Below, in pieces: positions 1,976-46,840 of a stretch of DNA of 47,453 bases. Both the position numbers and the translations under genes were made by a program. Within the stretch, counting starts at the first letter, position 1; the number at the start of each line of letters is the position of its first letter. Below the pieces are notes generated by a model that did not search any database, was not told where the DNA came from, and was given only the letters and a program-made list of their open reading frames with translations. Source of the stretch: a virus (taxonomy: Duplodnaviria > Heunggongvirae > Uroviricota > Caudoviricetes); IMG/VR virus record IMGVR_UViG_2778261248_000001. The stretch is one strand, 5' to 3'.

Positions 1976-2992
1976 TCACTTTTGTTTTAGCTTTATAATT
2001 TCTGATATCATAGTTGTTAGCTTTGAATCGGAAAGATTCTGCAGTCTATCTTTCTCAATAGAAACTGTACTTTGTCCCTTTTCTAATATGAAATTTCTTT
2101 CTGTTTTCATTAAAAGCATTGCCAACTCTTTTATCATGTCTTCGTTCTTGAATTCTTGAGCATATTTTAGAGACATGACTTTCATCTCAATATTTGTGAT
2201 TTCATTCTGAAAATATTTGATTTCGTCAAACCCATTTTTATAGAGGCGTAGAAAAAAATAAGCAAACAATTCAACGACTATTACAAATGATAATTTAGGA
2301 AGGTGATGAATAAAAAATCCCACCCCATCCACAATGTCTGGCGCGCTGTAAAGAAAGTAAGCAAGAGATAATATCCCTGTCAACGCAATTATTGTTCCGA
2401 TTGCAAGGTTAAGCCCACCTCGTCGATTGAGTCTGTCTATTTCAGACTCTAATCTTAGAACCATATCAGTATGGAGTTTATGTAAGCTGTAGCTCTTCTT
2501 AAAATCAGATATATCGCTTTTTAGGCTGTTATCTGCCAGAAGTATTGTGTTTCCAATTATTCTCTTTTTTGCATCGGATATTAACTTCTCCCTTTCACTC
2601 TCTGTTATTTCAATGGAAACTCCGGAAGATGTTCTATTTTCAATTTCGCTCAATTTTTTATTTAGCTTAACTATTTCTTTGTGAAAAATATATCTCGTGT
2701 TTTCAATATCTCTACCACCAATTCCTTTGTTTAAATAAGAAGTCATTATTGCGACAAAAGAACCAACAAAAACTAGGGCAGTTGCTGTAAATAAAATAAA
2801 CTCTTTCTTCTCGTTTATTAAATTTACTATTGATGATGATTCCAGTTGAATGTCTGAAAGCGAAGTTTTAAGCACAAAATTCATCACAGGTGAAACCATG
2901 ATTATGGCAACAACTATAATAAATCCATATTTTTTTATAATGTAAATAAGAAGACCAAATAAATCTTTCATTTTATCTTTTACCTGAAACAA
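1976..2992 (-). CDS. Orphan membrane protein with coiled-coil segments (about four predicted TM helices), function unknown
   Basis: 338-aa ORF in a visibly AT-rich island between int and xis; hydrophobic stretches near residues 11-40, 65-87, 195-216, 235-252 separated by Lys/Glu-rich heptad-like regions; no recognisable catalytic motif. Confidence 0.6.
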   Translation of the reverse strand: MFQVKDKMKDLFGLLIYIIKKYGFIIVVAIIMVSPVMNFVLKTSLSDIQLESSSIVNLINEKKEFILFTATALVFVGSFVAIMTSYLNKGIGGRDIENTRYIFHKEIVKLNKKLSEIENRTSSGVSIEITESEREKLISDAKKRIIGNTILLADNSLKSDISDFKKSYSLHKLHTDMVLRLESEIDRLNRRGGLNLAIGTIIALTGILSLAYFLYSAPDIVDGVGFFIHHLPKLSFVIVVELFAYFFLRLYKNGFDEIKYFQNEITNIEMKVMSLKYAQEFKNEDMIKELAMLLMKTERNFILEKGQSTVSIEKDRLQNLSDSKLTTMISEIIKLKQK

Positions 2993-3344
2993 ATTTTTAT
3001 TAAAGTAACTTAAAAAATGATTGATTGCAAGATTTACTATTGCTGTTCATTTTAAATTACTATACCCCCCTATGCATACATATAATCCCATAGGGGAGAA
3101 GTTTATTAGTTAGTTAAGTTGAAGGCTATACCTACAATCTAATTTCCCTCCAACCTAACATGCACAAGCGTCAACCTATCGGTAGTGATAATTTTATGAG
3201 GATACGTATAAACAAGATTCTGAGTTGCTCCTATTCATTAAGACAATACATTTTGTAACTTCTGCTTTTGGCTCAGGGTGGGGTGTGAGATTAGGTTTGG
3301 CTCTGTGCCATAGATGTGTCAGTTCACATCTGAGCTAATACACA

Positions 3345-3539
3345 TTACTCAATCACTCCAGCAAACCTATATATCTTGTGTGACGCCCATTTATTTGGGC
3401 ATGATTTAATATCAGGATCTGGAAAATCAGGCCTGTATTTCTGGCCAGTTCTCCGGTTTACGCTGTTCCAGCGAAGAACTGTCGATACTGAAACGCCACA
3501 GAAGTCGGCGACTTGTTTAGTTGTCATTAAGTCGTTCAT
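3345..3539 (-). CDS. xis: Excisionase / AlpA-type small HTH DNA-binding protein
   Basis: 64 aa, MNDLMTTKQVADFCGVSVSTVLRW helix-turn-helix signature; AGGAGG 7 nt upstream; start overlaps stop of upstream gene (TAATG); position next to int. Confidence 0.6.
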   Translation of the reverse strand: MNDLMTTKQVADFCGVSVSTVLRWNSVNRRTGQKYRPDFPDPDIKSCPNKWASHKIYRFAGVIE

Positions 3540-4159
3540 TACTTCACCTCCTGCGGCGGTTCCGGTAGCGGCATCCAGTGGGTTACTTTCGATGCCGGTT
3601 CTTCCACATCGTCAGTAACTGCCCACCATTTGTTTTTCGACCAATCGTAATACCCTTCGAAGGTATCGCACTCAGTCCAGCCGTAAGACTTCCCCCAACA
3701 CCAAACATACTGTTTATCGTTCGGCATTCGCTCACTACAGCTTATCCAACCATCCGGAGTTACCGGAGAGTTGCCCGACAGCTCGTTCAACTTATAAGTC
3801 TGGCTTACAGGTTCGGCACCATTAAGCATGGAGGCGCGGCAGGCGTTCCAGCCTTCATCAAAGCCGACTATGCCATTATTTAAAGACGGACGAGCATCTG
3901 GCACCATCGGCACTGGCTTGGCTATATATAGCGGCTGAACATACCAGCCCTTTGATAACCAACTGTCAGCAATGTTTTTACTCCTCGTTATTGCCGGAAT
4001 ACCTAAGCCATTTTCTGAATGCAGCCATGCCACCGGCTCCTCTTCTAGCGATGCCAGAGCAATTTCATAAGCACGGCGCTCAATATCGTCTCGAACCTCT
4101 AGGCTGCTGATTCGTTCTTTGATTTCTTTAATCAGTTCTTTATTGGTAAATGTGGTCAT
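3539..4159 (-). CDS. Phage early protein, DUF551-type C-terminus
   Basis: 206 aa; C-terminal VTHWMPLPEPP motif typical of DUF551 phage proteins; translationally coupled in leftward operon. Confidence 0.65.
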   Translation of the reverse strand: MTTFTNKELIKEIKERISSLEVRDDIERRAYEIALASLEEEPVAWLHSENGLGIPAITRSKNIADSWLSKGWYVQPLYIAKPVPMVPDARPSLNNGIVGFDEGWNACRASMLNGAEPVSQTYKLNELSGNSPVTPDGWISCSERMPNDKQYVWCWGKSYGWTECDTFEGYYDWSKNKWWAVTDDVEEPASKVTHWMPLPEPPQEVK

Positions 4160-4521
4160 TATGCTCCAGCCTCCGGCGCTTTTGGCATTACTGCCCAGTG
4201 AGTGATATTGAAGTTTTCAAGGTCCCCGACCTGAAATGTCCACTGCCATTCTCCGGTTTCTTTTTGTCCCCAGGTGTACCAGAGAGAACGCCAGCCAATC
4301 AGCCAGCCTTCTCCGTTAGCATCAAATAACAGAACACTTTCATTTGCTGGTGGCAGTTCAGCTGACACTGGTATTATTTTGTTTTCCAGTGCCGCACATT
4401 TAGCTTCAAGCGCGTCGAATTTACGTACCAGGTACTCAGCATTTGTTTCGTTCACTTTCAGATCTCGCGGTACACATTTCCCGCGAAGAAACCCTTCCAT
4501 TTCGAAAACATTCATGCGCAT
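4159..4521 (-). CDS. Phage early protein (DUF551-like C-terminal motif)
   Basis: 120 aa; C-terminal ITHWAVMPKAPE resembles the DUF551 signature; overlapping start/stop with neighbours. Confidence 0.55.
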   Translation of the reverse strand: MRMNVFEMEGFLRGKCVPRDLKVNETNAEYLVRKFDALEAKCAALENKIIPVSAELPPANESVLLFDANGEGWLIGWRSLWYTWGQKETGEWQWTFQVGDLENFNITHWAVMPKAPEAGA

Positions 4522-5048
4522 TTGCGTAACTCCGATAACTCGTTAAAACGTTCCATAAACATCCCGTAGGCATGGCTAGGTGCCAGTGGAATCACGTTGA
4601 ACATCTCTGTTGCCGGGATGCCTTCCAGTACAGGCCAGAAAGAGCCATCATCAAGCCCGAGATCGCGGCGTTCGGTTGCCAGCATGATAAGATCGGCATA
4701 TTTCACGGGCGTACTCATAACTGGGGGTAACCCGTATTTCTCACGGATTACGGCGTCAATTTTTTCTTCCATCCGTTTATAGTCAGGAAGAAGGCGTTTC
4801 AGTGGAGCGGGAATATCCTGGCAATACGCTTCTGTTGCATCATGCATTAACGCTTCAAAAGCAAATTCCTGCGGCACCAGCTGGCTGCAAAGCACCGCAT
4901 GTTGGGCGACACTGTAGAAGTGAGAAAGATGACCGGCAAAGCGGCAGATATTTGAAAGGGAAACCGCGATATCGTTAATCACGATGTCGTCTTTATTTAT
5001 CTTGTCATAATAAAAATGCTTCCCGGAAAAAGTTTTAATAAATGACAT
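4512..5048 (-). CDS. yfdR: HD-domain phosphohydrolase (YfdR-like 5'-deoxynucleotidase family)
   Basis: ATG at 5048 with GGAG 8 nt upstream gives 178 aa (ORF track used an upstream GTG at 5075); His and HD...E residues (FAGHLSHF, LMHDATEAY) consistent with HD hydrolase; resembles the CPS-53 prophage YfdR as I recall it. Confidence 0.65.
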   Translation of the reverse strand: MSFIKTFSGKHFYYDKINKDDIVINDIAVSLSNICRFAGHLSHFYSVAQHAVLCSQLVPQEFAFEALMHDATEAYCQDIPAPLKRLLPDYKRMEEKIDAVIREKYGLPPVMSTPVKYADLIMLATERRDLGLDDGSFWPVLEGIPATEMFNVIPLAPSHAYGMFMERFNELSELRKCA

Positions 5049-14701: not shown

Positions 14702-15462
14702 ATGATTTTCACCGAACGATGGCGACATAACGATTGTATTTTCTAAGGAAACGTGCAAAGAGTTTTCCAATGATGAGCCTTATATGCATACCGGTGGAAA
14801 ATATCAATAAGCCGCGCAGAGTGGTTTTTTTGTGGACATAAACTTTGTGCAGAACGGTAACCATTATGGTTGCCGTGAATGCAGTTTTTTTACATTGCTG
14901 GCTTTTTTAGATTTGTGTTAGTTATTGATATTAACAAGAAGGGGAAAAGACATGCTAAAACGGCAGGATATGAAGGAAACGGTTATGCGTGAATGTTCCA
15001 GTGTGATTAACCATATCATCTGGAGAAGCCATCCTGATGCAGGGAAGAGGTAACAGTAACGCGCATCAATCAGGCTGCAAATAAATGGCTTACGCCGGAA
15101 ATCTGGCTATCGATGTATTACCGGTTTGTTACCCATGAAGAAAATTAAGGTGATAACGAAACTGATTTTATAGGTGTCTTGTCAGAGTGTTGCGATGAAA
15201 CTTGTGTTGGCAGTGCAGGGAAAACAGTAGGATGAAAATTATAAATTGCTTTAAATTAGCTTGATTTTCCTCATGTTATGAGATATTTGTCTTATATTGC
15301 TGGTTAATTATGAAAATTTTTGTAAATCTACAGCAATAAAATCCATATTAATTAAAGCACTAGATGCGTTTCTGATTTGTGCATGAAACATACATATCAT
15401 AATGATTAATTGCATCTATAATTACAGATACAGCATTGTGCTGTTAAAAAACTGGAGTCCCC

Positions 15463-37115: not shown

Positions 37116-37859
37116 ATGACAGAGACAGAATCAGCGATTCTGGCGCACGCCCGGCGATGTGCGCCAGCGGAGTCGTGCGGCTTCGTGGTGAGAACGCCGG
37201 AGGGGGAAAGATATTTTCCCTGCGTGAATATTTCCGGTGAGCCGGAGGATTATTTCCGGATGGCTCCGGAGGACTGGCTGCAGGCAGAAATGCAGGGTGA
37301 GATTGTGGCGCTGGTCCACAGCCACCCCGGTGGTCTGCCCTGGCTGAGTGAGGCTGACCGGCGGCTGCAGGTGCAGAGTGATTTGCCGTGGTTGCTGGTC
37401 TGCCGGGGGGCGATTCACAAGTTCCGCTGTGTGCCGCATCTCACCGGGCGGCGCTTTGAGCACGGGGTGACGGACTGTTACACGCTGTTCCGGGACGCTT
37501 ACCATCTGGCGGGGATTGAGATGCCGGATTTTACGCGGGAGGATGACTGGTGGCGTCACGGTCAGAATCTCTATCTGGATAATCTGGAGGCAACGGGGCT
37601 GTATCAGGTGCCGTTGTCAGCGGCGCAGCCGGGCGATGTGCTGCTGTGCTGCTTTGGTTCATCGGTGCCGAATCATGCCGCTATTTACTGTGGTGACGGC
37701 GAGCTGCTGCACCATATTCCTGAACAACTGAGCAAACGAGAGAGGTATACCGACAAATGGCAGCGACGCACACACTCCCTCTGGCGTCACCGGGCATGGC
37801 ACGCATCTGCCTTTACGGGGATTTGCAACGATTTGGCCGCCGCATCGACCTTCGTGTGA
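37116..37859 (+). CDS. K: Tail tip assembly protein K (JAMM/MPN motif and NlpC/P60-like region)
   Basis: JAMM motif HSHPGGLPWLSEAD; ORF opens at ATG 37116 (an internal ATG at 37260 corresponds to the traditionally annotated lambda K start). Confidence 0.85.
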   Translation: MTETESAILAHARRCAPAESCGFVVRTPEGERYFPCVNISGEPEDYFRMAPEDWLQAEMQGEIVALVHSHPGGLPWLSEADRRLQVQSDLPWLLVCRGAIHKFRCVPHLTGRRFEHGVTDCYTLFRDAYHLAGIEMPDFTREDDWWRHGQNLYLDNLEATGLYQVPLSAAQPGDVLLCCFGSSVPNHAAIYCGDGELLHHIPEQLSKRERYTDKWQRRTHSLWRHRAWHASAFTGICNDLAAASTFV

Positions 37860-38398
37860 AAACGGGAGCCGAAGCCATCCGGGCGCTGACCACGCAGCTA
37901 CCGTCGTTTCGCCAGAAACTGAATGAGGGCTGGTATCAGGTGCGCATTGCCGGGCGTGATGCAGGCGAAACCGAATTATCTGCCCGTCTTAATGAGCCGC
38001 TGGCAAATGGTGCCGTGATCCACATTGTGCCGCGTCTGGCGGGAGCTAAAAGTGGCGGTGTTTTTCAGGCAGTGCTGGGTGCGGCGCTAATTGCTACGGC
38101 AATCTGGATGCCAGGAATCAGTATCGCTTTCAGTAACATTCTCTTTTCTATGGGGGCAGCGATGACGCTTGGTGGTATCGCACAGATGCTGGCCCCTAAA
38201 CCCAAAACTCCACGTACACAGACAACGGATAACGGCAAACAGAACACCTATTTCTCCTCACTGGATAACATGGTTGCCCAGGGCAATGTCCTGCCTGTTC
38301 TGTACGGTGAAATGCGCGTGGGGTCACGTGTGGCATCTCAGGAGATCAGCACGGCAGATGAAGGGGATGGTGGTCAGGTTGTGGTAATTGGGCGGTAA
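37757..38398 (+). CDS. I: Tail tip assembly protein I
   Basis: 213 aa, MAATHTLPLASPGMARICLYGDLQRFGRRIDLRVKTGAEAIR... as lambda gpI; central region diverges from lambda. Confidence 0.85.
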   Translation: MAATHTLPLASPGMARICLYGDLQRFGRRIDLRVKTGAEAIRALTTQLPSFRQKLNEGWYQVRIAGRDAGETELSARLNEPLANGAVIHIVPRLAGAKSGGVFQAVLGAALIATAIWMPGISIAFSNILFSMGAAMTLGGIAQMLAPKPKTPRTQTTDNGKQNTYFSSLDNMVAQGNVLPVLYGEMRVGSRVASQEISTADEGDGGQVVVIGR

Positions 38399-38470
38399 TA
38401 TTATTTACTCATGTTCTAACTGATTTAATATTTATATCGAACACTGATAATTATTCTGTTGGTTAGCTAT

Positions 38471-38809
38471 ATGAACAAAACGATTTTATTCTGCACGATT
38501 ATTGCCTTAACAGGATGTAAATCTTTGGATTACGTAAAATCCGGAAAACCTGTAATGGAAGGTAATTCATTAAAAAATATTGATGAATTGTCAGGCTGCA
38601 TATCCAGACAATGGGCTGGTAATGGAACACCTATAACATCCCTTCCTATTGAGAATGGGGTAAGCCTTTTAGTTCCACAGGCTATGGGTGGGTATGATGT
38701 TGTGCTTGATATCAAAAAAGCAGGAAATGGCAGTAGTTTTACTCTTTATGAACGCGTACCAGCATTAACGCCAAAAATTTTTGCTGATAGTGTTAATGCA
38801 TGTAAATAA
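38471..38809 (+). CDS. Lipoprotein encoded by an AT-rich insertion between tail genes I and J, function unknown
   Basis: 112 aa from ATG 38471; signal peptide with lipobox LTGC (MNKTILFCTIIALTGC); no gene occupies this position in lambda as I recall. Confidence 0.6.
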   Translation: MNKTILFCTIIALTGCKSLDYVKSGKPVMEGNSLKNIDELSGCISRQWAGNGTPITSLPIENGVSLLVPQAMGGYDVVLDIKKAGNGSSFTLYERVPALTPKIFADSVNACK

Positions 38810-38833
38810 TAGTTAATCCTACCGTAACTCATG

Positions 38834-38861
38834 AGCCGCCTTTTGGGCGGCTTTGTCGTTT
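38834..38861 (+). terminator. Stem-loop with T-run upstream of J (terminator-like; a similar hairpin precedes J in lambda)
   Basis: AGCCGCC-TTTTG-GGCGGCT followed by TTGTCGTTT. Confidence 0.5.
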
Positions 38862-38875
38862 ATGGAGTGTGAGGA

Positions 38876-41800
38876 ATGGGTAAAGGAAGCAGTAAGGGGC
38901 ATACCCCGCGCGAAGCAAAGGACAACCTGAAGTCCACGCAGTTGCTGAGTGTGATCGATGCCATCAGCGAAGGGCCGATAGAAGGTCCGGTGGATGGATT
39001 AAAAAGCGTGCTGCTGAACAGTACACCGGTGCTGGACAGTGAGGGGAATACCAATATCTCCGGCGTCACGGTGGTGTTCCGTGCAGGTGAGCAGGAGCAG
39101 ACACCGCCGGAGGGATTTGAATCCTCCGGCTCCGAGACTGTGCTGGGTACGGAAGTGAAATATGACACGCCGATCACCCGGACCATCACGTCGGCAAACA
39201 TCGACCGTCTGCGCTTTACCTTCGGTGTGCAGGCACTGGTGGAAACCACCTCAAAGGGGGACCGGAATCCGTCGGAAGTCCGCCTGCTGGTTCAGATACA
39301 GCGTAACGGTGGCTGGGTGACGGAAAAAGACATCACCATTAAGGGCAAAACCACCTCGCAGTATCTGGCCTCGGTGGTGGTGGATAACCTGCCGCCGCGC
39401 CCGTTTAATATCCGGATGCGCAGGATGACGCCGGACAGCACCACAGACCAGCTGCAGAACAAAACGCTCTGGTCGTCATACACCGAAATCATCGATGTGA
39501 AACAGAGCTACCCGAACACGGCACTGGTCGGCGTGCAGGTGGATTCGGAGCAGTTCGGCAGCCAGCAGGTGAGCCGTAATTATCATCTGCGCGGGCGTAT
39601 TCTGCAGGTGCCGTCGAATTATAACCCGCAGACGCGGCAATACAGCGGTATCTGGGACGGAACGTTTAAACCGGCATACAGCAACAACCCGGCCTGGTGT
39701 CTGTGGGATATGCTGACCCATCCGCGCTACGGCATGGGAAAACGTCTTGGTGCGGCGGATGTGGACAAATGGGCGTTGTATGTCATCGGCCAGTACTGCG
39801 ACCAGTCAGTGCCGGACGGCTCTGGCGGCACGGAGCCGCGCATCACCTGTAATGCGTACCTGAGCACACAGCGCAAGGCGTGGGATGTGCTCAGTGATTT
39901 CTGCTCGGCGATGCGCTGTATGCCGGTATGGAACGGGCAGACGCTGACGTTCGTGCAGGACCGACCATCAGATAAGGTGTGGACCTATAACCGCAGTAAT
40001 GTGGTGATGCCGGATGATGGCGCGCCGTTCCGCTACAGCTTCAGCGCCCTGAAGGACCGCCATAATGCCGTTGAGGTGAACTGGATTGACCCGAACAACG
40101 GCTGGGAGACGGCGACAGAGCTTGTTGAAGATACGCAGGCCATTGCCCGTTACGGTCGTAATGTCACGAAGATGGATGCCTTTGGCTGTACCAGCCGGGG
40201 GCAGGCACACCGCGCCGGGCTGTGGCTGATTAAAACGGAACTGCTGGAGACGCAGACCGTGGATTTCAGCGTGGGTGCTGAAGGGCTTCGCCATGTACCG
40301 GGCGATGTCATTGAAATCTGCGATGATGACTATGCCGGTATCAGCATCGGCGGGCGCGTGCTGGCGGTGAACAGCCAGACGCGGACACTGACGCTCGACC
40401 GTGAAATCACGCTGCCATCCTCCGGTACCACGCTGATAAGCCTGGTTGACGGAAGTGGCAATCCGGTCAGCGTGGAGGTCCAGTCCGTCACCGACGGCGT
40501 GAAGGTAAAAGTGAGTCGTGTTCCTGACGGCGTTGCCGGATACAGCGTGTGGGGGCTGAAGCTGCCGACGCTGCGCCAGCGCCTGTTCCGCTGCGTGAGT
40601 ATCCGTGAGAACGACGACGGCACGTATGCCATCACCGCCGTGCAGCATGTACCGGAAAAAGAAGCCATCGTGGATAACGGGGCGCACTTTGACGGCGACC
40701 AGAGCGGCACGGTGAATGGTGTCACGCCGCCAGCAGTGCAGCACCTGACTGCCGAAGTCACCGCAGACAGCGGGGAATATCAGGTGCTGGCGCGCTGGGA
40801 CACGCCGAAGGTGGTGAAGGGGGTGAGCTTTATGCTTCGCCTGACCGTGGCAGCGGACGACGGCAGTGAGCGGCTGGTCAGCACGGCCAGGACGACGGAA
40901 AACACATACCGCTTCAGGCAGCTGGCGCTGGGGAACTACAGGCTGACAGTCCGGGCGGCAAATGCGTGGGGACAGCAGGGCGATCCGGCATCGGTATCGT
41001 TCCGGATTGCCGCACCGGCAGCACCGTCGCGGATTGAGCTGACGCCGGGCTATTTTCAGATAACCGCCACGCCGCATCTTGCCGTTTATGACCCGACGGT
41101 ACAGTTTGAGTTCTGGTTCTCGGAAAAGCGGGTTGCTGATATCAGACAGGTTGAAACCACAGCCCGCTATCTTGGCACGGCGCTGTACTGGATAGCCGCC
41201 AGTACCAATATCAAACCGGGCCGTGATTATTACTTTTATATCCGCAGTGTGAACACCGTCGGCAAATCGGCATTCGTGGAGGCTGTTGGTCGGGCGAGCG
41301 ATGATGCGGAAGGTTACCTGGATTTTTTCAAAGGCCAGATAACCGAATCCCATCTCGGCAAGGAGCTGCTGGAAAAAGTCGAGCTGACGGAGGATAACGC
41401 CAGCAAACTGGAGGAGTTTTCGAAAGAGTGGAAAGACGCCAACGATAAATGGAATGCCATGTGGGGCGTCAAAATTGAGCAGACCGAAGACGGCAGGCAT
41501 TATGTCGCGGGGCTTGGCCTCAGCATGGAGGATACGGAGGAAGGCAAACTGAGCCAGTTCCTGGTTGCCGCTAACCGTATCGCGTTTATTGAACCGTCTA
41601 ATGGCAACACAAGACCAATGTTTGTTGGGCAGGGCGATCAGATATACATGAATGAAGTGTTCCTGAAATATCTGACGGCTCCCACCATTACCAGCGGCGG
41701 TAATCCTCCGGCATTTTCCCTGACACCGGACGGGCGGCTGACGGCGAAAAATGCCGATATCAGCGGTAGCGTGAATGCGAACTCCGGGACGCTCAACAAC

Positions 41801-42271
41801 GTCACGATTAACGAGAACTGTCGGGTTCTGGGAAAACTGTCCGCGAACCAGATTGAAGGCGATCTCGTTAAAACAGTGGGCAAAGCTTTCCCCCGGGACT
41901 CCCGTGCACCGGAGCGGTGGCCATCAGGGACCATTACCGTCAGGGTTTATGACGATCAGCCGTTTGACCGGCAAATTGTTATTCCAGCGGTGGCTTTCTG
42001 CGGTGCCAGACATGAGCGGGAGAATAGCGATACTTATTCGTCATGCCGCCTGATAGTGAAGAAAAACGGGGCTGAAATTTATAACCGAACGGCTCTGGAT
42101 AATACTCTGATTTACACGGGTGTTATTGATATGCCAGCAGGCAGTGGCGTAATGACACTGGAGTTTTCTGTATCAGCATGGTGGGTAAATGGTTGGTATC
42201 CCACAGCAAGTATCAGCGATTTGCTGGTTGTTGTGATGAAGAAAGCCACTGCAGGCATCACGATTAGCTGA
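38876..42271 (+). CDS. J: Tail tip / central tail fibre protein J
   Basis: 1131 aa; lambda gpJ size and position. Confidence 0.95.
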
Positions 42272-42323: not shown

Positions 42324-44726
42324 GTGAATATGGCAGTACAGATTTCAGGTGTGCTGAAAGACGGTGCAGGAAAACCGATACAGAACTGCACCATTCAGCT
42401 CAAAGCAAAACGTAACAGCACCACGGTTGTGGTAAACACGGTGGCCTCAGAAAATCCGGATGAAGCCGGGCGTTACAGTATGGATGTTGAGTATGGCCAG
42501 TACAGCGTTATCCTGCTGGTTGAAGGTTTTCCGCCTTCACATGCCGGGACCATCACCGTGTATGAAGATTCTAAGCCGGGGACGCTGAATGATTTTCTCG
42601 GTGCCATGACGGAAGATGATGTCATGCCGGAGGCATTGCGTCGTTTTGAGGAAATGGTGGAAGAAGCGGCACGCAACGCTGAAGCCGCCTCTCAGAGCGC
42701 AGCGGCGGCAAAGAAATCCGAAACTGCAGCGGCATCATCGAAGAACGCGGCGAAAACCTCAGAAACGAATGCAGCTAATAGTGCACAGGCGGCAGCGACC
42801 TCAAAGACTGCATCGGCAAACTCCGCGACAGCAGCCAAAAAATCAGAAACCAACGCGAAAAATAGCGAGACAGCCGCAAAGACGAGCGAAACCAACGCAA
42901 AGTCCAGCCAGACGGCAGCGAAAACCAGCGAAACGAATGCCAAAGCCAGTGAAACTGCGGCAAAAAACAGCCAGGTTGCAGCAGCCCAAAGCGAGAGCGC
43001 GGCAGCCGGTTCTGCGACTTCAGCAGCTGGATCAGCAACTGCTGCGGCTAACAGCCAGAAAGCTGCGAAGACGAGTGAAACTAACGCAAAGTCCAGCCAG
43101 ACGGCAGCGAAGACCAGCGAAACGAATGCCAAAGCCAGCGAAACTGCGGCGAAAAACAGTCAGGATGCAGCAGCCCAAAGCGAGAGTGCTGCAGCTGGTT
43201 CTGCAAGCGCGGCGGCTGCTTCTGCCACTGCATCAGCCAACAGTCAAAAAGCAGCAAAAACCAGTGAAACCAATGCAAAGACAAGCGAGACTGCAGCGGC
43301 GAACTCGGCGAAAGCATCGGCAGCAAGCCAGACAGCAGCTAAAGCAAGTGAAGACGCAGCCAGAGAGTATGCAAGTCAGGCAGCAGAGCCGTATAAATAT
43401 GTCTTACAGCCACTGCCTGATGTGTGGATACCGTTTAACGATTCACTGGATATGATTACGGGCTTTTCGCCGTCATATAAAAAAATTGTTATTGGTGATG
43501 ATGAAATAACGATGCCTGGCGACAAGGTTGTTAAGTTTAAACGCGCATCAACTGCCACATATATCAATAAATCAGGCGTATTTAGTGTTGCTAAAATTGA
43601 TGAGCCACGATTTGAAAAAGAAGGTTTATTGATTGAAGGACAGCGCACTAACTATTTTGTTAAATCCAATACTCCCGCTGAATGGACGAGTACCAGCAAT
43701 ATCGATAAAACTAATAATGGTGTTGATGAATTTGGTTTTTCATATGCCAAAATGCGAACAAAAGATAATATGACAGGACAATCATCTGCACTTAGTCTGC
43801 ATACATGCAGTGCATCCCGGGGGATTGATGTTAGTGGCGATAATAAGTATTGCACTGTTTCATGCAGGGTTAAAGCTCCTGATGGTCTTCGTTGTCGTTT
43901 GCGTTTTGAAAAATACGATGGGTCGGTTTATACATTTTTAGGAGATGCTTATTTAACTTTCGGAACTCTGATAATAGAAAAAACTGGCGGAGCAGCCAAT
44001 AGAATAGCAGCTACTGCAACTAAAGATCCGGTTACAGGGTGGATTTTCTATGAGGCAACTATAGAAGCTGTTGAAGGTGAAACCTTAATTGGCGCAATGA
44101 TTCAGTATGCGCCGAAAAAAGGTGGTATAACTGAAGCGGGAGATTATATTTACCTTGCAACACCACAATTTGAAAACGGCGGATGTGCTTCATCTTTTGT
44201 TATTACGACAACTGCACCCGCAACCCGCTCCAGTGATATGGTGACGATCCCAACTGAAAATAATATCTATAATAGACCGCTTACGTGTCTTGTCGAGGTT
44301 AATAGAAATTGGGGCGATATTCCTCCTAATGTAGCACCGCGTATTTTTGATTTTTCTGGTGTGCCACCTATTGAGTCAATTACATACGCTTTTAACACAA
44401 CTGAGAAATATTACGGTCAGCTTTATATGCAAACTTATAAAGCGTCGACAAGTACTTACGTTTCTAGTGTGTTTGCTGGTCGAACTGATGTTCGAAAATT
44501 CATTGGTGGTTTTAATATTTATTCTGATGGTACTAAACGAGTAGTTTCTAACGGTGAGGCTACTAAAACTATGAAAACGGAGTGGACGGGCGTAAAAACA
44601 CGGACCTTTATTCGAATTGGAGGTCAAGCCACATCGGGAACTCGTCATCTATTCGGCCATTTGAGAAATCTTCGTCTCTGGCATAAAGAATTAACTGATG
44701 CGCAAATGGGGGGGAGTATTAAATGA
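42324..44726 (+). CDS. stf: Side tail fibre protein: lambda Stf-like N-terminus and repeats, divergent AT-rich distal domain
   Basis: 800 aa; N-terminus MAVQISGVLKDGAGKPIQNCTIQLKAKRNSTTVVVNTV... lambda Stf-like; Ser/Ala/Thr-rich repeats; composition shifts to AT-rich from about 43380. Confidence 0.8.
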   Translation: MNMAVQISGVLKDGAGKPIQNCTIQLKAKRNSTTVVVNTVASENPDEAGRYSMDVEYGQYSVILLVEGFPPSHAGTITVYEDSKPGTLNDFLGAMTEDDVMPEALRRFEEMVEEAARNAEAASQSAAAAKKSETAAASSKNAAKTSETNAANSAQAAATSKTASANSATAAKKSETNAKNSETAAKTSETNAKSSQTAAKTSETNAKASETAAKNSQVAAAQSESAAAGSATSAAGSATAAANSQKAAKTSETNAKSSQTAAKTSETNAKASETAAKNSQDAAAQSESAAAGSASAAAASATASANSQKAAKTSETNAKTSETAAANSAKASAASQTAAKASEDAAREYASQAAEPYKYVLQPLPDVWIPFNDSLDMITGFSPSYKKIVIGDDEITMPGDKVVKFKRASTATYINKSGVFSVAKIDEPRFEKEGLLIEGQRTNYFVKSNTPAEWTSTSNIDKTNNGVDEFGFSYAKMRTKDNMTGQSSALSLHTCSASRGIDVSGDNKYCTVSCRVKAPDGLRCRLRFEKYDGSVYTFLGDAYLTFGTLIIEKTGGAANRIAATATKDPVTGWIFYEATIEAVEGETLIGAMIQYAPKKGGITEAGDYIYLATPQFENGGCASSFVITTTAPATRSSDMVTIPTENNIYNRPLTCLVEVNRNWGDIPPNVAPRIFDFSGVPPIESITYAFNTTEKYYGQLYMQTYKASTSTYVSSVFAGRTDVRKFIGGFNIYSDGTKRVVSNGEATKTMKTEWTGVKTRTFIRIGGQATSGTRHLFGHLRNLRLWHKELTDAQMGGSIK
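42875..43270 (+). repeat. 180-bp tandem duplication inside stf (60-aa repeat), plus partial third copy
   Basis: 42875-43054 and 43055-43234 are near-identical (protein AKTSETNAKSSQTAAKTSETNAKASETAAKNSQ...). Confidence 0.6.
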
Positions 44727-45004
44727 AAGATTTAACACTCAAATTTGCAGACAGGGCCGACTTTTCGGCCTTTATGGAGAGCATTGGCTATTATGATGAC
44801 GAGTCGATGCAGGATGATATTCTTATTGACGTGATAGGTAATGTGTACAAAGAAACCGGAGAACTTACTGAAGATGGCGAGCCGGTATGTGTTAAGGAGG
44901 ACGGATATTTTGTAAATGTGCGCATCATTAATGATTCGCAAATATCGTCATTATTCGATGAACACGCGGTTGCTGTTGAGCATCAACTCCGTAGCTGGAT
45001 GTGA
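44723..45004 (+). CDS. Small acidic hypothetical protein (93 aa) downstream of stf
   Basis: ATGA overlap with stf stop; AT-rich; no recognisable motif. Confidence 0.4.
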   Translation: MKDLTLKFADRADFSAFMESIGYYDDESMQDDILIDVIGNVYKETGELTEDGEPVCVKEDGYFVNVRIINDSQISSLFDEHAVAVEHQLRSWM

Positions 45005-45013
45005 GGAAGAAAA

Positions 45014-45718
45014 ATGGCTACATCGACAGTAATTCCTGATGACATCAAAACGCTAAAGGGAGATGTCAGTAAGGCAAAGGAAGATATTTCCTCAATTAAC
45101 GTAAAAGTATCAACGCTTCAGACTGATATGGACAGTGCAAAGCAGGATATCAGTACCAGATACACAAAAACAGAAGTGGATAATAAGCTGAAAAACAAAG
45201 TGGAAGTGAACGATCTGGAAAGTGGTCGTTATGGCGGAGATTTTTACCCGCTGACTGGCCGTGAAGCGTTTTATTTATGGGGATTGGGCACAACTACAGC
45301 GGCGGCAAATCTTTATCTTAATCCTGACCCTGCAATTTCGTCTGTGCTGCGGTCAACATCGTCTATCCGCTATAAACATTCAGTAGAGACGATAGATTCA
45401 GAGCACGCCGATCTCATTTTCAGGATGCGCCCTGTGTGGTACAGGTCGCAATGCGAAAATGACAGGCGTGACTGGGGATTCTATGGATTGATTGCCGAGG
45501 AAGTAGGAGAAATTGCCCCTCAGTTTGTTCACTGGCGACCAGCCAACGAAGATGATGCACCGGAAACCATTTCCAGCAATGGCCTTGTTGCCGAAGGTGT
45601 AATGTACGAACGTCTGGTTGTTCCACTGATTCACCATATCCAGAAACTGACTGAAAGAGTTGATGAACTTGAGTCAGAATTGAAGTTGTTATCAACTTCC
45701 CAAAGCGATATCGGATAA
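45014..45718 (+). CDS. Short tail-fibre-like protein with C-terminal intramolecular chaperone (endosialidase-chaperone / peptidase S74-like) domain
   Basis: 234 aa; N-terminal coiled coil; C-terminal SSIRYKHS...RPVWYRSQ...WGFYGLIAEEVGEIAPQFV...LVVPLIHHIQKL resembles the autoproteolytic chaperone domain of phage fibres. Confidence 0.5.
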   Translation: MATSTVIPDDIKTLKGDVSKAKEDISSINVKVSTLQTDMDSAKQDISTRYTKTEVDNKLKNKVEVNDLESGRYGGDFYPLTGREAFYLWGLGTTTAAANLYLNPDPAISSVLRSTSSIRYKHSVETIDSEHADLIFRMRPVWYRSQCENDRRDWGFYGLIAEEVGEIAPQFVHWRPANEDDAPETISSNGLVAEGVMYERLVVPLIHHIQKLTERVDELESELKLLSTSQSDIG

Positions 45719-45728
45719 AGGAGGAGTA

Positions 45729-46022
45729 ATGGATATAACACCTTTTCTTCATGCGCTTTGTGCTGTGGCTGCGCAGGTAATGATTGGTCTTTTTACCGGA
45801 AACTGGGTTTACGGGGCGATAGCCGGTTGTACGTTCTTCATTGCGCGTGAACACACCCAGGCAGAATATCGCTGGATTGAAATGTTCGGGCATGGCAAGC
45901 GGATTAACATGCCGTGGTGGGGCGGTTTTGATCCGCGTGTTTGGGATGTGGCAAGCCTGATAGATTTTGCTGTGCCGGTGGTGGCGTGTCTGCTGGTCTG
46001 GCTGTTGGTTAATCGTGGGTGA
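45729..46022 (+). CDS. Small membrane protein (about three TM segments), hypothetical
   Basis: 97 aa, hydrophobic stretches at N-terminus, middle and C-terminus; AGGAG SD upstream. Confidence 0.4.
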   Translation: MDITPFLHALCAVAAQVMIGLFTGNWVYGAIAGCTFFIAREHTQAEYRWIEMFGHGKRINMPWWGGFDPRVWDVASLIDFAVPVVACLLVWLLVNRG

Positions 46023-46032
46023 AAAAAGGTGA

Positions 46033-46152
46033 GCTGTATATGCAACGGAGGAAGAAACCCCGTTGCTGGAAGCCTGGAAAAAGTATCGGGTGTTGCTGAA
46101 CCGTGTTGATACGTCAACTGCACAGGATATTGAATGGCCAGCACGGCCGTAG
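46033..46152 (+). pseudogene. tfa: 3'-terminal remnant of a tail fibre assembly (Tfa) gene
   Basis: Open frame without start encodes ...[34 protein letters not shown]-stop, the conserved Tfa C-terminal motif; the N-terminal majority of the gene is missing. Confidence 0.6.
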
Positions 46153-46249
46153 GGTAAAACATATAAATTCTATAATTAGATGTATCTTTCCATTTACGGC
46201 AAGGAAGGGGGCTTGGAAGACGTAAAGCATCTCACACCGAGATTATTTT

Positions 46250-46840
46250 TTATATGTCAGGTGTCTGAAGTTTTGCTTTGGCTCTTAAAATGGTTTGCCG
46301 CGAGGTTTTGAATTCCCGGGCAATGGCACTTATACTTACACCTGACTTAATTCGTTCGAATACCACCTGTTTCTGTTCTTCATTTAACACAGGTGGTCGA
46401 CCAAAACGTTTCCCTGCGCCCCGGGCTCTTACTATCCCGGAATGAGTGCGTTCAAGTAAAAGGTCTCGTTCAAATTCAGCGACTGCTGAAATTACTTGCA
46501 TCATCATTTTTCCTGTTGGACTGGTCAGGTCAATGCCCCCCAATGCTAAGCAATGCACTCTGATACCTGTTTCGGTCAGTTGTTCCACTGTTTTCCTGAT
46601 ATCCATTGCATTACAACCAAGGCGATCCAGTTTTGTCACAATCAATTGATCACCACATTTCAGGCGAGCAAGCAACCGGTTAAAACCAGGACGCTCACTG
46701 GTTGCTGCTGAGCCGCTAATGTGTTCTTCGATTATTTGCTGAGGTTTGATTTTAAAACCTGCACTTTCGATTTCCCGGCGTTGATTTTCGGTGGTCTGAT
46801 CCAGAGTTGATATCCGACAGTAAGCAAAAATTCGAGACAT
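46250..46840 (-). CDS. pin: Serine recombinase, Pin/Gin/Hin-type DNA invertase
   Basis: 196 aa; N-terminal catalytic [15 protein letters not shown] (active-site Ser), C-terminal HTH; same family as prophage Pin invertases. Confidence 0.85.

Follow-up and report, generated by a model that had tools for sequence, protein, structure and literature searches.

A tail-tip family of predicted outer-membrane lipoprotein genes and its member between genes I and J of an Escherichia coli lambdoid prophage

The 47,453-nucleotide stretch of DNA analysed here in full (IMG/VR record IMGVR_UViG_2778261248_000001; hereafter the window) is a complete lambdoid prophage, and the same prophage lies between yjjG and prfC in Escherichia coli strain A22. 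Between its tail genes I and J is an AT-rich insertion that encodes a 112-amino acid lipoprotein precursor. This gene belongs to the already catalogued family phrog_914, which includes gp19 of phage phiKO2, and the I–J junction is a new slot for that family, not the mark of a new type of element. We are confident that it is an accessory gene of the moron type that was acquired horizontally, and its product is predicted to be a small lipoprotein of the inner leaflet of the outer membrane. In siphophages like lambda, HK97 and N15 the family is usually found in the tail-tip cluster, with gene I immediately downstream. Based on this position, on the turnover of the gene as a cassette and on precedents among phage proteins, exclusion of other phages or protection of progeny at the level of the cell envelope may tentatively be named as the likeliest role, although we would not place this reading at even odds.

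A 432-bp AT-rich insertion between tail genes I and J

Between the stop codon of I (TAA, 38396–38398) and the ATG of J (38876) there are 477 nt, in which the list of open reading frames (ORFs) holds a single ORF from ATG 38471 to TAA 38809. The edges of the insertion were set by alignment with the lambda-type phages Lambda_2E9, PhiR49_1_star and Ayreon, in which the I–J spacer is only 60 bp; by this alignment the insertion starts immediately after the I stop codon and is 432 bp long (38399–38830). A first-pass annotation of the window, made from the sequence alone, had described about 410 bp of AT-rich DNA placed upstream of a conserved hairpin; the insertion and the hairpin are both borne out, whereas the size has to be revised. 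Its description of the lambda I–J region as a short, hairpin-bearing spacer agrees with the lambda-type phages, and the 112-amino acid protein that it read here, with a lipoprotein signal peptide and the lipobox LTGC, is the product of the ORF at 38471–38809, with Cys16 closing the lipobox. The coordinates of the features are collected in Table 1.

Table 1. Features of the I–J region of the window, and loci of the unrelated lipoprotein family phrog_890 in other records.
Feature	Record	Position	Strand	Basis or remark
Tail gene I (tail-tip plug / insertion protein gpI)	window	37757–38398	+	ORF list; tblastn and profile matches to Lambda_tail_I-type proteins
AT-rich 432-bp insertion, not in lambda-type I–J spacers	window	38399–38830		alignment; GC 0.345
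Leader 5' of the lipoprotein gene, 72 nt, GC 0.236	window	38399–38470	+	no convincing sigma-70 promoter or Shine-Dalgarno sequence
Lipoprotein precursor gene, 112 amino acids plus stop, phrog_914 member (WP_001332187-type)	window	38471–38809	+	AlphaFold2 model, pLDDT 83.7
Signal peptide with lipobox LTGC; Cys16 predicted lipidation site, Lys17 at +2	window	38471–38518	+	read from sequence
GC-rich hairpin and T-run, terminator-like	window	38833–38863	+	9-bp stem, six GC pairs; common to the lambda I–J spacer
Tail gene J (central fibre / host specificity), 1131 amino acids	window	38876–42271	+	C-terminal 250 amino acids 59.6% identical to lambda J
phrog_890	L172 (vB_Pae_CF183a)	3001–3363		
phrog_890	L104	3239–3661		
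phrog_890	L105	2640–3062		
phrog_890	L170	2459–2872		
phrog_890	L171	2950–3372		

Three hallmarks of morons were found at this site. The base composition deviates, with a guanine-plus-cytosine (GC) content of 0.345 for the insertion (0.366 in the coding sequence, 0.25 at third codon positions) against 0.56–0.60 in the flanks (I, 0.561; J, 0.569; K, 0.599). There is an extra gene at a junction that is empty in near relatives of otherwise collinear gene order, as seen in the 60-bp spacers and in none of 110 isolated relatives carrying it. Finally, the hairpin at 38833–38853 and its T-run provide a predicted factor-independent terminator downstream. This hairpin was not delivered by the insertion, as it is already present in the lambda spacer; its counterpart in Ayreon carries a terminator annotation. 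The base of the stem and the loop differ from those of lambda (GAGCCGCC-TTTT-GGGCGGCTT here, AAACCGCC-TCCG-GGCGGTTT in lambda) with pairing intact. The bias in composition extends to the family: in each of the eight contexts compared (the window and seven homologues) the lipoprotein gene is AT-richer than the tail gene beside it.

A predicted outer-membrane lipoprotein

The precursor begins with MNKTILFCTIIALTGC and continues KSLDY, giving a lysine in the n-region, a hydrophobic core and the lipobox Leu-Thr-Gly-Cys, so that the signal peptide ends in the pattern [LVI][ASTVI][GAS]C. The codon of Cys16 occupies 38516–38518 and this cysteine is invariant across 25 family members, four of which also match the Pfam motif LPAM_1. 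The residue at +2 is lysine, not aspartate, and is followed by serine at +3; among the other members the +2 position is A, S, T, G or V. Under the Lol sorting rule of E. coli, aspartate at +2 is the signal for retention in the inner membrane, and by this rule the lipoprotein is predicted to be located in the outer membrane.

The AlphaFold2 model (predicted local distance difference test score, pLDDT, 83.7) is of one alpha/beta domain, consisting of a short helix, a strand, a long helix that carries C43, a four-stranded sheet and a C-terminal helix that carries C111. The mature protein is very probably of about 96 amino acids, with a short tether followed by a single compact helix-grip domain of the alpha/beta class, in which two cysteines are invariant. 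The nearest fold match was Flpp3 of Francisella, and identity to the fold matches was 6–12%. The likeness to Flpp3/DUF3568 and to the N-terminal domain of BamC is in fold only, and unrelated helix-grip, KA1 and DUF302 domains score similarly. The predicted fold is therefore a generic helix-grip lipoprotein fold, and for this reason, and given the low identity, we draw no functional inference from it. A role as an o-spanin was considered, but the window encodes an Rz-type protein in a lysis cassette of its own, and the lipoprotein is not Rz1-like.

It is very hard to credit that the gene is non-functional, either as a chance ORF or as a decaying remnant in AT-rich junk. Estimated from the base frequencies of the insertion, about 7% of codons would be expected to be stops, which makes 112 open codons improbable by chance. 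Homologues with 22–62% identity retain the lipobox, K35, C43, G63 and C111, and the ratio of nonsynonymous to synonymous substitution rates (dN/dS) is 0.06–0.20, with dS close to saturation; by these sequence comparisons the family is under purifying selection. The conservation crosses genera, the structural model is confident and most by far of the roughly 60 copies sampled retain an intact ORF. What could be held in favour of a non-functional gene is that no clear ribosome-binding site was read in the sequence and that some copies are inactivated. An in-frame TTG at 38459, upstream of the ATG, is unsupported as a start by the alignments with homologues. The inactivated copies comprise frameshifted or interrupted genes in L064–L066, P0002 and P0018, and an IS1 element in E. 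coli c1-17 (H7/H8), which lies inside the matched stretch made up of the end of I, the insertion and the start of J. Because such copies exist, the gene is dispensable for the host.

Membership of the phrog_914 family

The first-pass annotation had found no recognisable homology for this protein, a statement that the profile searches overturn. The protein matched phrog_914 over its full length (E 7.3e-33; residues 1–112 against positions 1–118 of a 118-position profile), which was the sole match in PHROG at E ≤ 10 and is catalogued there as "unknown function". Isolated phages with family members are Fraca and LMessi of E. coli, phiKO2, Serratia phage OS31 and Pseudomonas phage phiAH14a. The members in Fraca, phiKO2 and OS31 were linked by reciprocal tblastn and p33 of phiAH14a matched the family profile with E 7e-19, although the window protein has only 20–25% identity to the phiKO2/Fraca/OS31 subfamily. 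Word-indexed and exhaustive profile searches identified closer relatives (48–62% identity) in Klebsiella, Kluyvera, Enterobacter and Jejubacter. The exhaustive search yielded 125 clusters, nearly all of them lipoproteins of 105–125 amino acids, and C16, K35, C43, G63 and C111 were invariant in an alignment of 25 members. Diverse members aligned too variably to allow pattern scans; a scan of genome contigs returned one locus, and viral scans with the P0030 and P0036 queries gave no matches.

The phage members phiKO2 gp19, OS31 p54, Fraca VUF53278 and phiAH14a p33 share with the window protein full-length homology, size, the lipobox, the two cysteines and AT-richness. Their genes are likewise found in the tail-tip cluster adjoining I and followed by a terminator-like hairpin, but in the phiKO2 gp19 group the position is between K and I where the window gene is between I and J. 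The annotation of gp19 as a "putative moron gene product" dates from 2004. The suggestion in the first-pass annotation that the protein may be a new exclusion factor had likewise been anticipated, as it was proposed in 2020 that OS31 p54 "might be an analog of Cor proteins" (PMC7556043).

Other databases added little. Searches of Pfam, NCBIfam and PADLOC with the window protein, and of Pfam with 25 members, returned only lipobox or signal-peptide matches, and neither the window protein nor the family profile had a meaningful sequence match in the PDB.

One young allele in E. coli prophages

By megablast the insertion had no match in 50,697 phage records. The 110 lambda-like isolated phages that matched its flanks all did so in two pieces, with the insertion absent in 110 of 110; the gene is therefore missing from lambda and these relatives, the comparison on which the first-pass annotation had staked its claim. 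By contrast with these phages, 334 of 5426 complete E. coli genomes (about 6%) carry the insertion. The encoded protein is annotated in E. coli as hypothetical (WP_001332187.1) and the identical protein was found on at least 1000 contigs.

We took 60 records evenly spaced down the ranking of E. coli records holding an I–J junction. Intact junctions were in two states only, with either a spacer of about 60 bp or the same insertion. Among about 53 IMG/VR copies, nucleotide diversity was 0.012 for the insertion, 0.069 for I, 0.055 for K and 0.031–0.041 for J (0.031 at its 5' end). Because the diversity of the insertion is far below that of its flanks, the data point to a single young acquisition, one allele of which has been spread by recombination through diverged tail modules of E. 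coli lambdoid prophages.

The usual position of the family is directly upstream of gene I

The E. coli allele was always located between I and J. Elsewhere, members were found directly upstream of I in phiKO2, OS31, Fraca and LMessi, in Klebsiella and Kluyvera prophages and in the P0021, P0022 and P0027 lineages. In 58 of 59 viral loci of subfamily B, I begins 50–102 bp downstream of the lipoprotein gene; the 59th (L161) ends just past the gene, leaving I outside the view. In the P0022-type locus L168 this distance is 67 bp. The gap from K across these 59 loci and L168 is 33, about 390, about 517 or 4478 bp. The lineage P0030 has the gene just 3' of K, on a contig that ends before any visible I. 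In the P0028 lineage and in the metagenomic phage contig L090 (JGI Ga0500618_003892, 2271–4969) there is an overlap of 4 nt between the lipoprotein gene and the K stop codon, and the next ORF downstream, which matches both the I and the J profiles, appears to be a fusion of I to J.

A possible reason for the different slot in lambda-type modules is that K and I overlap there by about 100 nt (37757–37859 in the window, where K is 37116–37859, and 14773–14875 in lambda). This leaves no gap between K and I, unlike in HK97- and N15-type modules, and may be why the gene is placed after I.

The association with I also holds away from the tail module. In phiAH14a, p33 is directly upstream of a second, isolated copy of I (p32) at 14 kb, far from the tail genes. 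The annotated start of p33 (L103, KU708004, 13998–15036, reverse strand) is wrong and the real ORF begins MRIAALGLAVALLSGC.

Several loci have further genes at or near the K–I junction. L088 (2420–6939) and L089 (3197–6939) have an immI-like insert of about 4.5 kb upstream of the lipoprotein–I pair, with genes for Arc-like repressors and for Bro-N, KilA-N/ANT or pRha antirepressor-like proteins. In L067 (10406–10855) a third type of lipoprotein, phrog_3152 (MKKLAIIGFAALVLSGC...), is encoded between the phrog_914 gene and I, and the K–I gap of this locus holds about 4 kb of other genes, one of them repressor-like.

Not all members are beside I. In L069 and L072–L074 the gene occupies the slot of the HK97 gp15 moron, with the tail chaperone genes on one side and the tape-measure gene on the other. 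A chromosomal member with 38% identity was found in Shimwellia blattae (CP001560; L084, 8001–8339) between a yidB-like gene and the ecotin gene, with copC, copD and yebY near and no phage genes nearby. Two tandem paralogues (L093, 904–1740; Logan SRR29257533) are on a plasmid-like contig with ParA, KfrA, a resolvase and YafO/antitoxin; a Rep3 gene was called just upstream, on the overlapping contig L094. Further members lie in a phage early region and beside an AAA_15/AAA_21 ATPase gene.

A second lipoprotein family, phrog_890, was also found near I. Its members include AH14a_p83, AH14b_p21, HK639_16 and SSU5_122, and profile–profile alignment with phrog_914 is limited to the signal peptide and about 15 tether residues. 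The phrog_890 gene is directly upstream of I in phiAH14a and in Pseudomonas aeruginosa phage vB_Pae_CF183a, where it is unannotated, and at least 12 further P. aeruginosa phage records have a match at a similar coordinate, judged from match positions and not from gene maps. In the satellite phiAH14b it follows I directly, in HK639 it comes after the tape-measure gene, and in SSU5 it is located away from the tail genes.

The lipoprotein gene is not coupled to the receptor-binding end of J

Given its position beside the host-specificity gene, the lipoprotein could be a blocker of the Cor/Llp type that is matched to its own phage, acting from the periplasm to inactivate the receptor used by the adjacent J. 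It is small and predicted to be in the outer membrane, as such a blocker would be, and the same idea was put forward for OS31 p54 (PMC7556043). We compared the C-terminal 250 amino acids of J across 38 loci with a near-identical lipoprotein (98–100% identity) and a complete J. These J ends fell into at least 10 clusters at 95% identity, forming four or five deep types, some with 55–60% mutual identity and some unalignable, none of them lambda-like. Conversely, the J end of the window is 95% identical to that of PhiR47_1, which does not have the insertion. Klebsiella relatives of the lipoprotein (about 52% identity) are encoded beside giant J proteins of 3100–3370 amino acids; Fraca has a separate, genuine cor gene (phrog_1119, E 7e-34) in addition to its phrog_914 member; and the gene adjoins I, 3 kb from the receptor-binding end of J. 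The lipoprotein is therefore not co-inherited with any particular receptor-binding domain, unlike Cor and Llp, and since identical copies accompany at least four or five deep types of J end, a blocker matched to its own J is decidedly improbable.

Nor does the lipoprotein follow the other tail genes. In Mantel tests on 12 lineages, its divergence was uncorrelated with that of I, K, L and the N-terminus of J (r 0.01–0.23; 0.07 for I), and also with that of each half of I taken alone, whereas the tail genes correlated with each other at r 0.78–0.89. Fraca and a Kluyvera prophage, for example, have K proteins with 92% identity and J N-termini with 87% identity but lipoproteins with 22% identity, and phiKO2 and a Klebsiella prophage are a further case of near-identical tail modules with lipoproteins of 22–26% identity. 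By these comparisons the gene is swapped as a cassette, which fits accessory or conflict genes.

Expression and possible role

In most lineages the gene is 30–50 bp behind K, and this tight packing indicates that it is at least co-transcribed with the late tail genes. As the lipoprotein is predicted to be exported, it would have no part in the assembly of tails in the cytoplasm and would act in the envelope. On the reading that we tentatively prefer, it would reside in the outer membrane, on the periplasmic side, of either the lysogen or the infected cell, where it would exclude incoming phages, save progeny from cell debris, or both. The step that is blocked would be independent of the receptor-binding end of the neighbouring J. 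A possible target would be some outer-membrane protein bound from the periplasm, in the way that Llp binds FhuA; alternatively, the protein might interfere when the tail-tip plug gpI and the tape-measure protein penetrate the outer membrane.

There are precedents among phage proteins. The genes for the lipoproteins Cor and Llp adjoin those for tail or receptor-binding proteins, gp15 of HK97 is a moron product encoded inside the tail module that blocks DNA entry, and the lipoprotein Ltp targets the tape-measure protein. Cor (of phi80, N15, T1 and HK022; phrog_1119) resembles the window protein in being a small phage outer-membrane lipoprotein encoded in the tail/host-range region, but it has about 77 amino acids, is encoded downstream of J and the fibre genes and is matched to FhuA-using phages, while the window protein has 112 and its gene adjoins I. 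Llp of T5 is an outer-membrane lipoprotein of the inner leaflet, as is predicted here, and inactivates its receptor from the periplasm to protect progeny; it differs in being about 60 amino acids when mature and in being the product of an early gene of a virulent phage, beside the gene for the receptor-binding protein. HK97 gp15 and TP-J34 Ltp are, like the window gene, accessory genes of temperate siphophages, and they exclude after adsorption. Ltp is a lipoprotein, and the gp15 slot between the chaperone and tape-measure genes is occupied by the family lineage L074. However, gp15 is an inner-membrane protein, Ltp is from a Gram-positive host, neither is homologous to the window protein, and a block of entry is here only conjectural. 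The Tai ("tail assembly interference") systems were set aside as a parallel, as their genes are upstream of the packaging module and do not encode lipoproteins.

A number of observations weigh against an exclusion role and account for the caution with which it is put forward. The carriers in the phage collection are all temperate, unlike those of Cor and Llp, which are also found in virulent phages. The chromosomal, plasmid-like and non-tail sites fit a general envelope function equally well, and the constant place beside I could reflect allelic replacement via conserved flanks. Scans of the 72-nt leader for the sigma-70 consensus identified no site on the plus strand, the best score of 9 being reached by 46% of shuffles, although consensus scans cannot exclude a promoter; from the sequence, the gene may be made only late in infection and not from the prophage. 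The lack of covariation between the lipoprotein and I among the 12 lineages gives no support for specific recognition of gpI. In PADLOC-DB, no family of defence models matched at E ≤ 10, and literature searches on WP_001332187 and phrog_914 gave no mention of either and no experimental work on any member. The first-pass annotation had also judged the protein to be unlike Cor, Llp and Bor, which holds for Cor, where BLASTP against Fraca Cor aligned the signal peptide only (E 0.19), and for Bor, as neither Lambda_Bor nor TraT was matched in Pfam by the window protein at E ≤ 10 or by any of the 25 members. There was no likeness in fold to Cor or Bor either. For Llp it holds only in that Llp was absent from the PDB sequence matches and from the best 50–60 fold matches, the presence of an Llp chain in these libraries being unconfirmed.

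Some of this would suit a lipoprotein of lysogenic conversion that serves the fitness of the host, through serum or complement resistance as for Bor/Iss or TraT, stress tolerance or adhesion, with no role in competition between phages. Bor of lambda, Iss and TraT are similarly acquired accessory outer-membrane lipoproteins on prophages or plasmids. The gene is AT-rich and prophage-borne, being present in 334 of 5426 E. coli genomes against 0 of 110 isolated lambda-like phages, the identical protein occurs on at least 1000 contigs, two settings outside phages, one chromosomal and one plasmid-like, also have members, and Flpp3, which came nearest in fold, is a virulence-associated lipoprotein of Francisella. 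That fold match is generic, however, and there is no likeness to the Bor or TraT families. Bor is encoded near the lysis genes with its own promoter, whereas the window gene has no detectable promoter and its relatives are mostly packed tightly in the late tail operon. A stable adjacency to I across phages of Escherichia, Klebsiella, Serratia and Pseudomonas would also be unexpected for such a gene. We therefore regard a purely host-directed role as doubtful, if still a serious candidate.

A further alternative is that the protein is made late, from a transcript that it shares with the tail genes, as a helper of the lytic cycle. It would modify the outer membrane so as to keep released virions from being triggered by or lost to debris and vesicles, or it would tune lysis, and it would be of use in productive growth only. 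The orientation with the late tail genes, the very short spacers (including the overlap with the K stop codon in L090) and the failure to find a promoter of its own are consistent with this, and T5 Llp, which shields progeny from active receptor in debris, provides a precedent. The gene is nevertheless dispensable, as near relatives with the same tail genes do without it, it was not found in virulent phages of the collection, and a terminator-like hairpin and AT-richness are typical of independently expressed morons. Its mechanism also overlaps with that of exclusion and the two are hard to separate. On balance a helper role of this kind seems unlikely.

Possible interception of gpI during entry

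Recent cryo-EM work describes gpI as the tail-tip plug of the virion, with hydrophobic helices that have been proposed to enter the host outer membrane after receptor binding (PMC11101478, PMC12617516, PMC10721106). It is conceivable, if a long shot, that the outer-membrane lipoproteins encoded beside I (phrog_914, phrog_890 and perhaps phrog_3152) are a receptor-independent class of exclusion proteins that would intercept gpI, or the bound C-terminus of the tape-measure protein, from the periplasm while gpI is entering the membrane of a cell that is already occupied, and so prevent the channel from forming and DNA from being delivered. Such interception would explain the proximity to I (50–100 bp, including the isolated pair and the satellite), the uncoupling from J and the swapping of cassettes. 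As the Mantel tests show no correlation between the lipoprotein and I, we hold this idea as speculative only. If true, it would stop lambda-like siphophages whatever the receptor of their J, and possibly also killing by F-type tailocins. Immunity directed at the NlpC/P60 peptidase domain of K was also considered and judged unlikely, K having no export signal; K was undetected in virions by mass spectrometry (PMC10721106).

Neighbouring genes in the window

RefSeq labels tail gene I as "tail assembly protein" in strain A22. Downstream of J (42324–46840) there is no lom-like gene. What follows J is a long gene for a tail fibre, some small ORFs, a tail-fibre assembly gene that is truncated and, on the reverse strand, a gene of the recombinase family (46250–46840), which from its position may encode an invertase of a tail-fibre segment.

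Significance

The moron annotation of phiKO2 gp19 and the phrog_914 catalogue entry were already known, and in that respect the window gene is another uncharacterised prophage lipoprotein. Of most value is that the pairing of gene I with genes for outer-membrane lipoproteins is conserved. The gene is frequent (about 6% of complete E. coli genomes) and conserved, and lipoprotein families are kept beside I across phages of Escherichia, Klebsiella, Serratia and Pseudomonas. A lipoprotein of the outer membrane that faces the periplasm would be well placed to act on the insertion of gpI into that membrane. Should exclusion be its role, it would represent a block at the outer membrane after adsorption, and a handle on how lambda-like tails cross this membrane; should it have no part in exclusion, the family would still be a surface component that prophages of E. 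coli and Klebsiella frequently carry.

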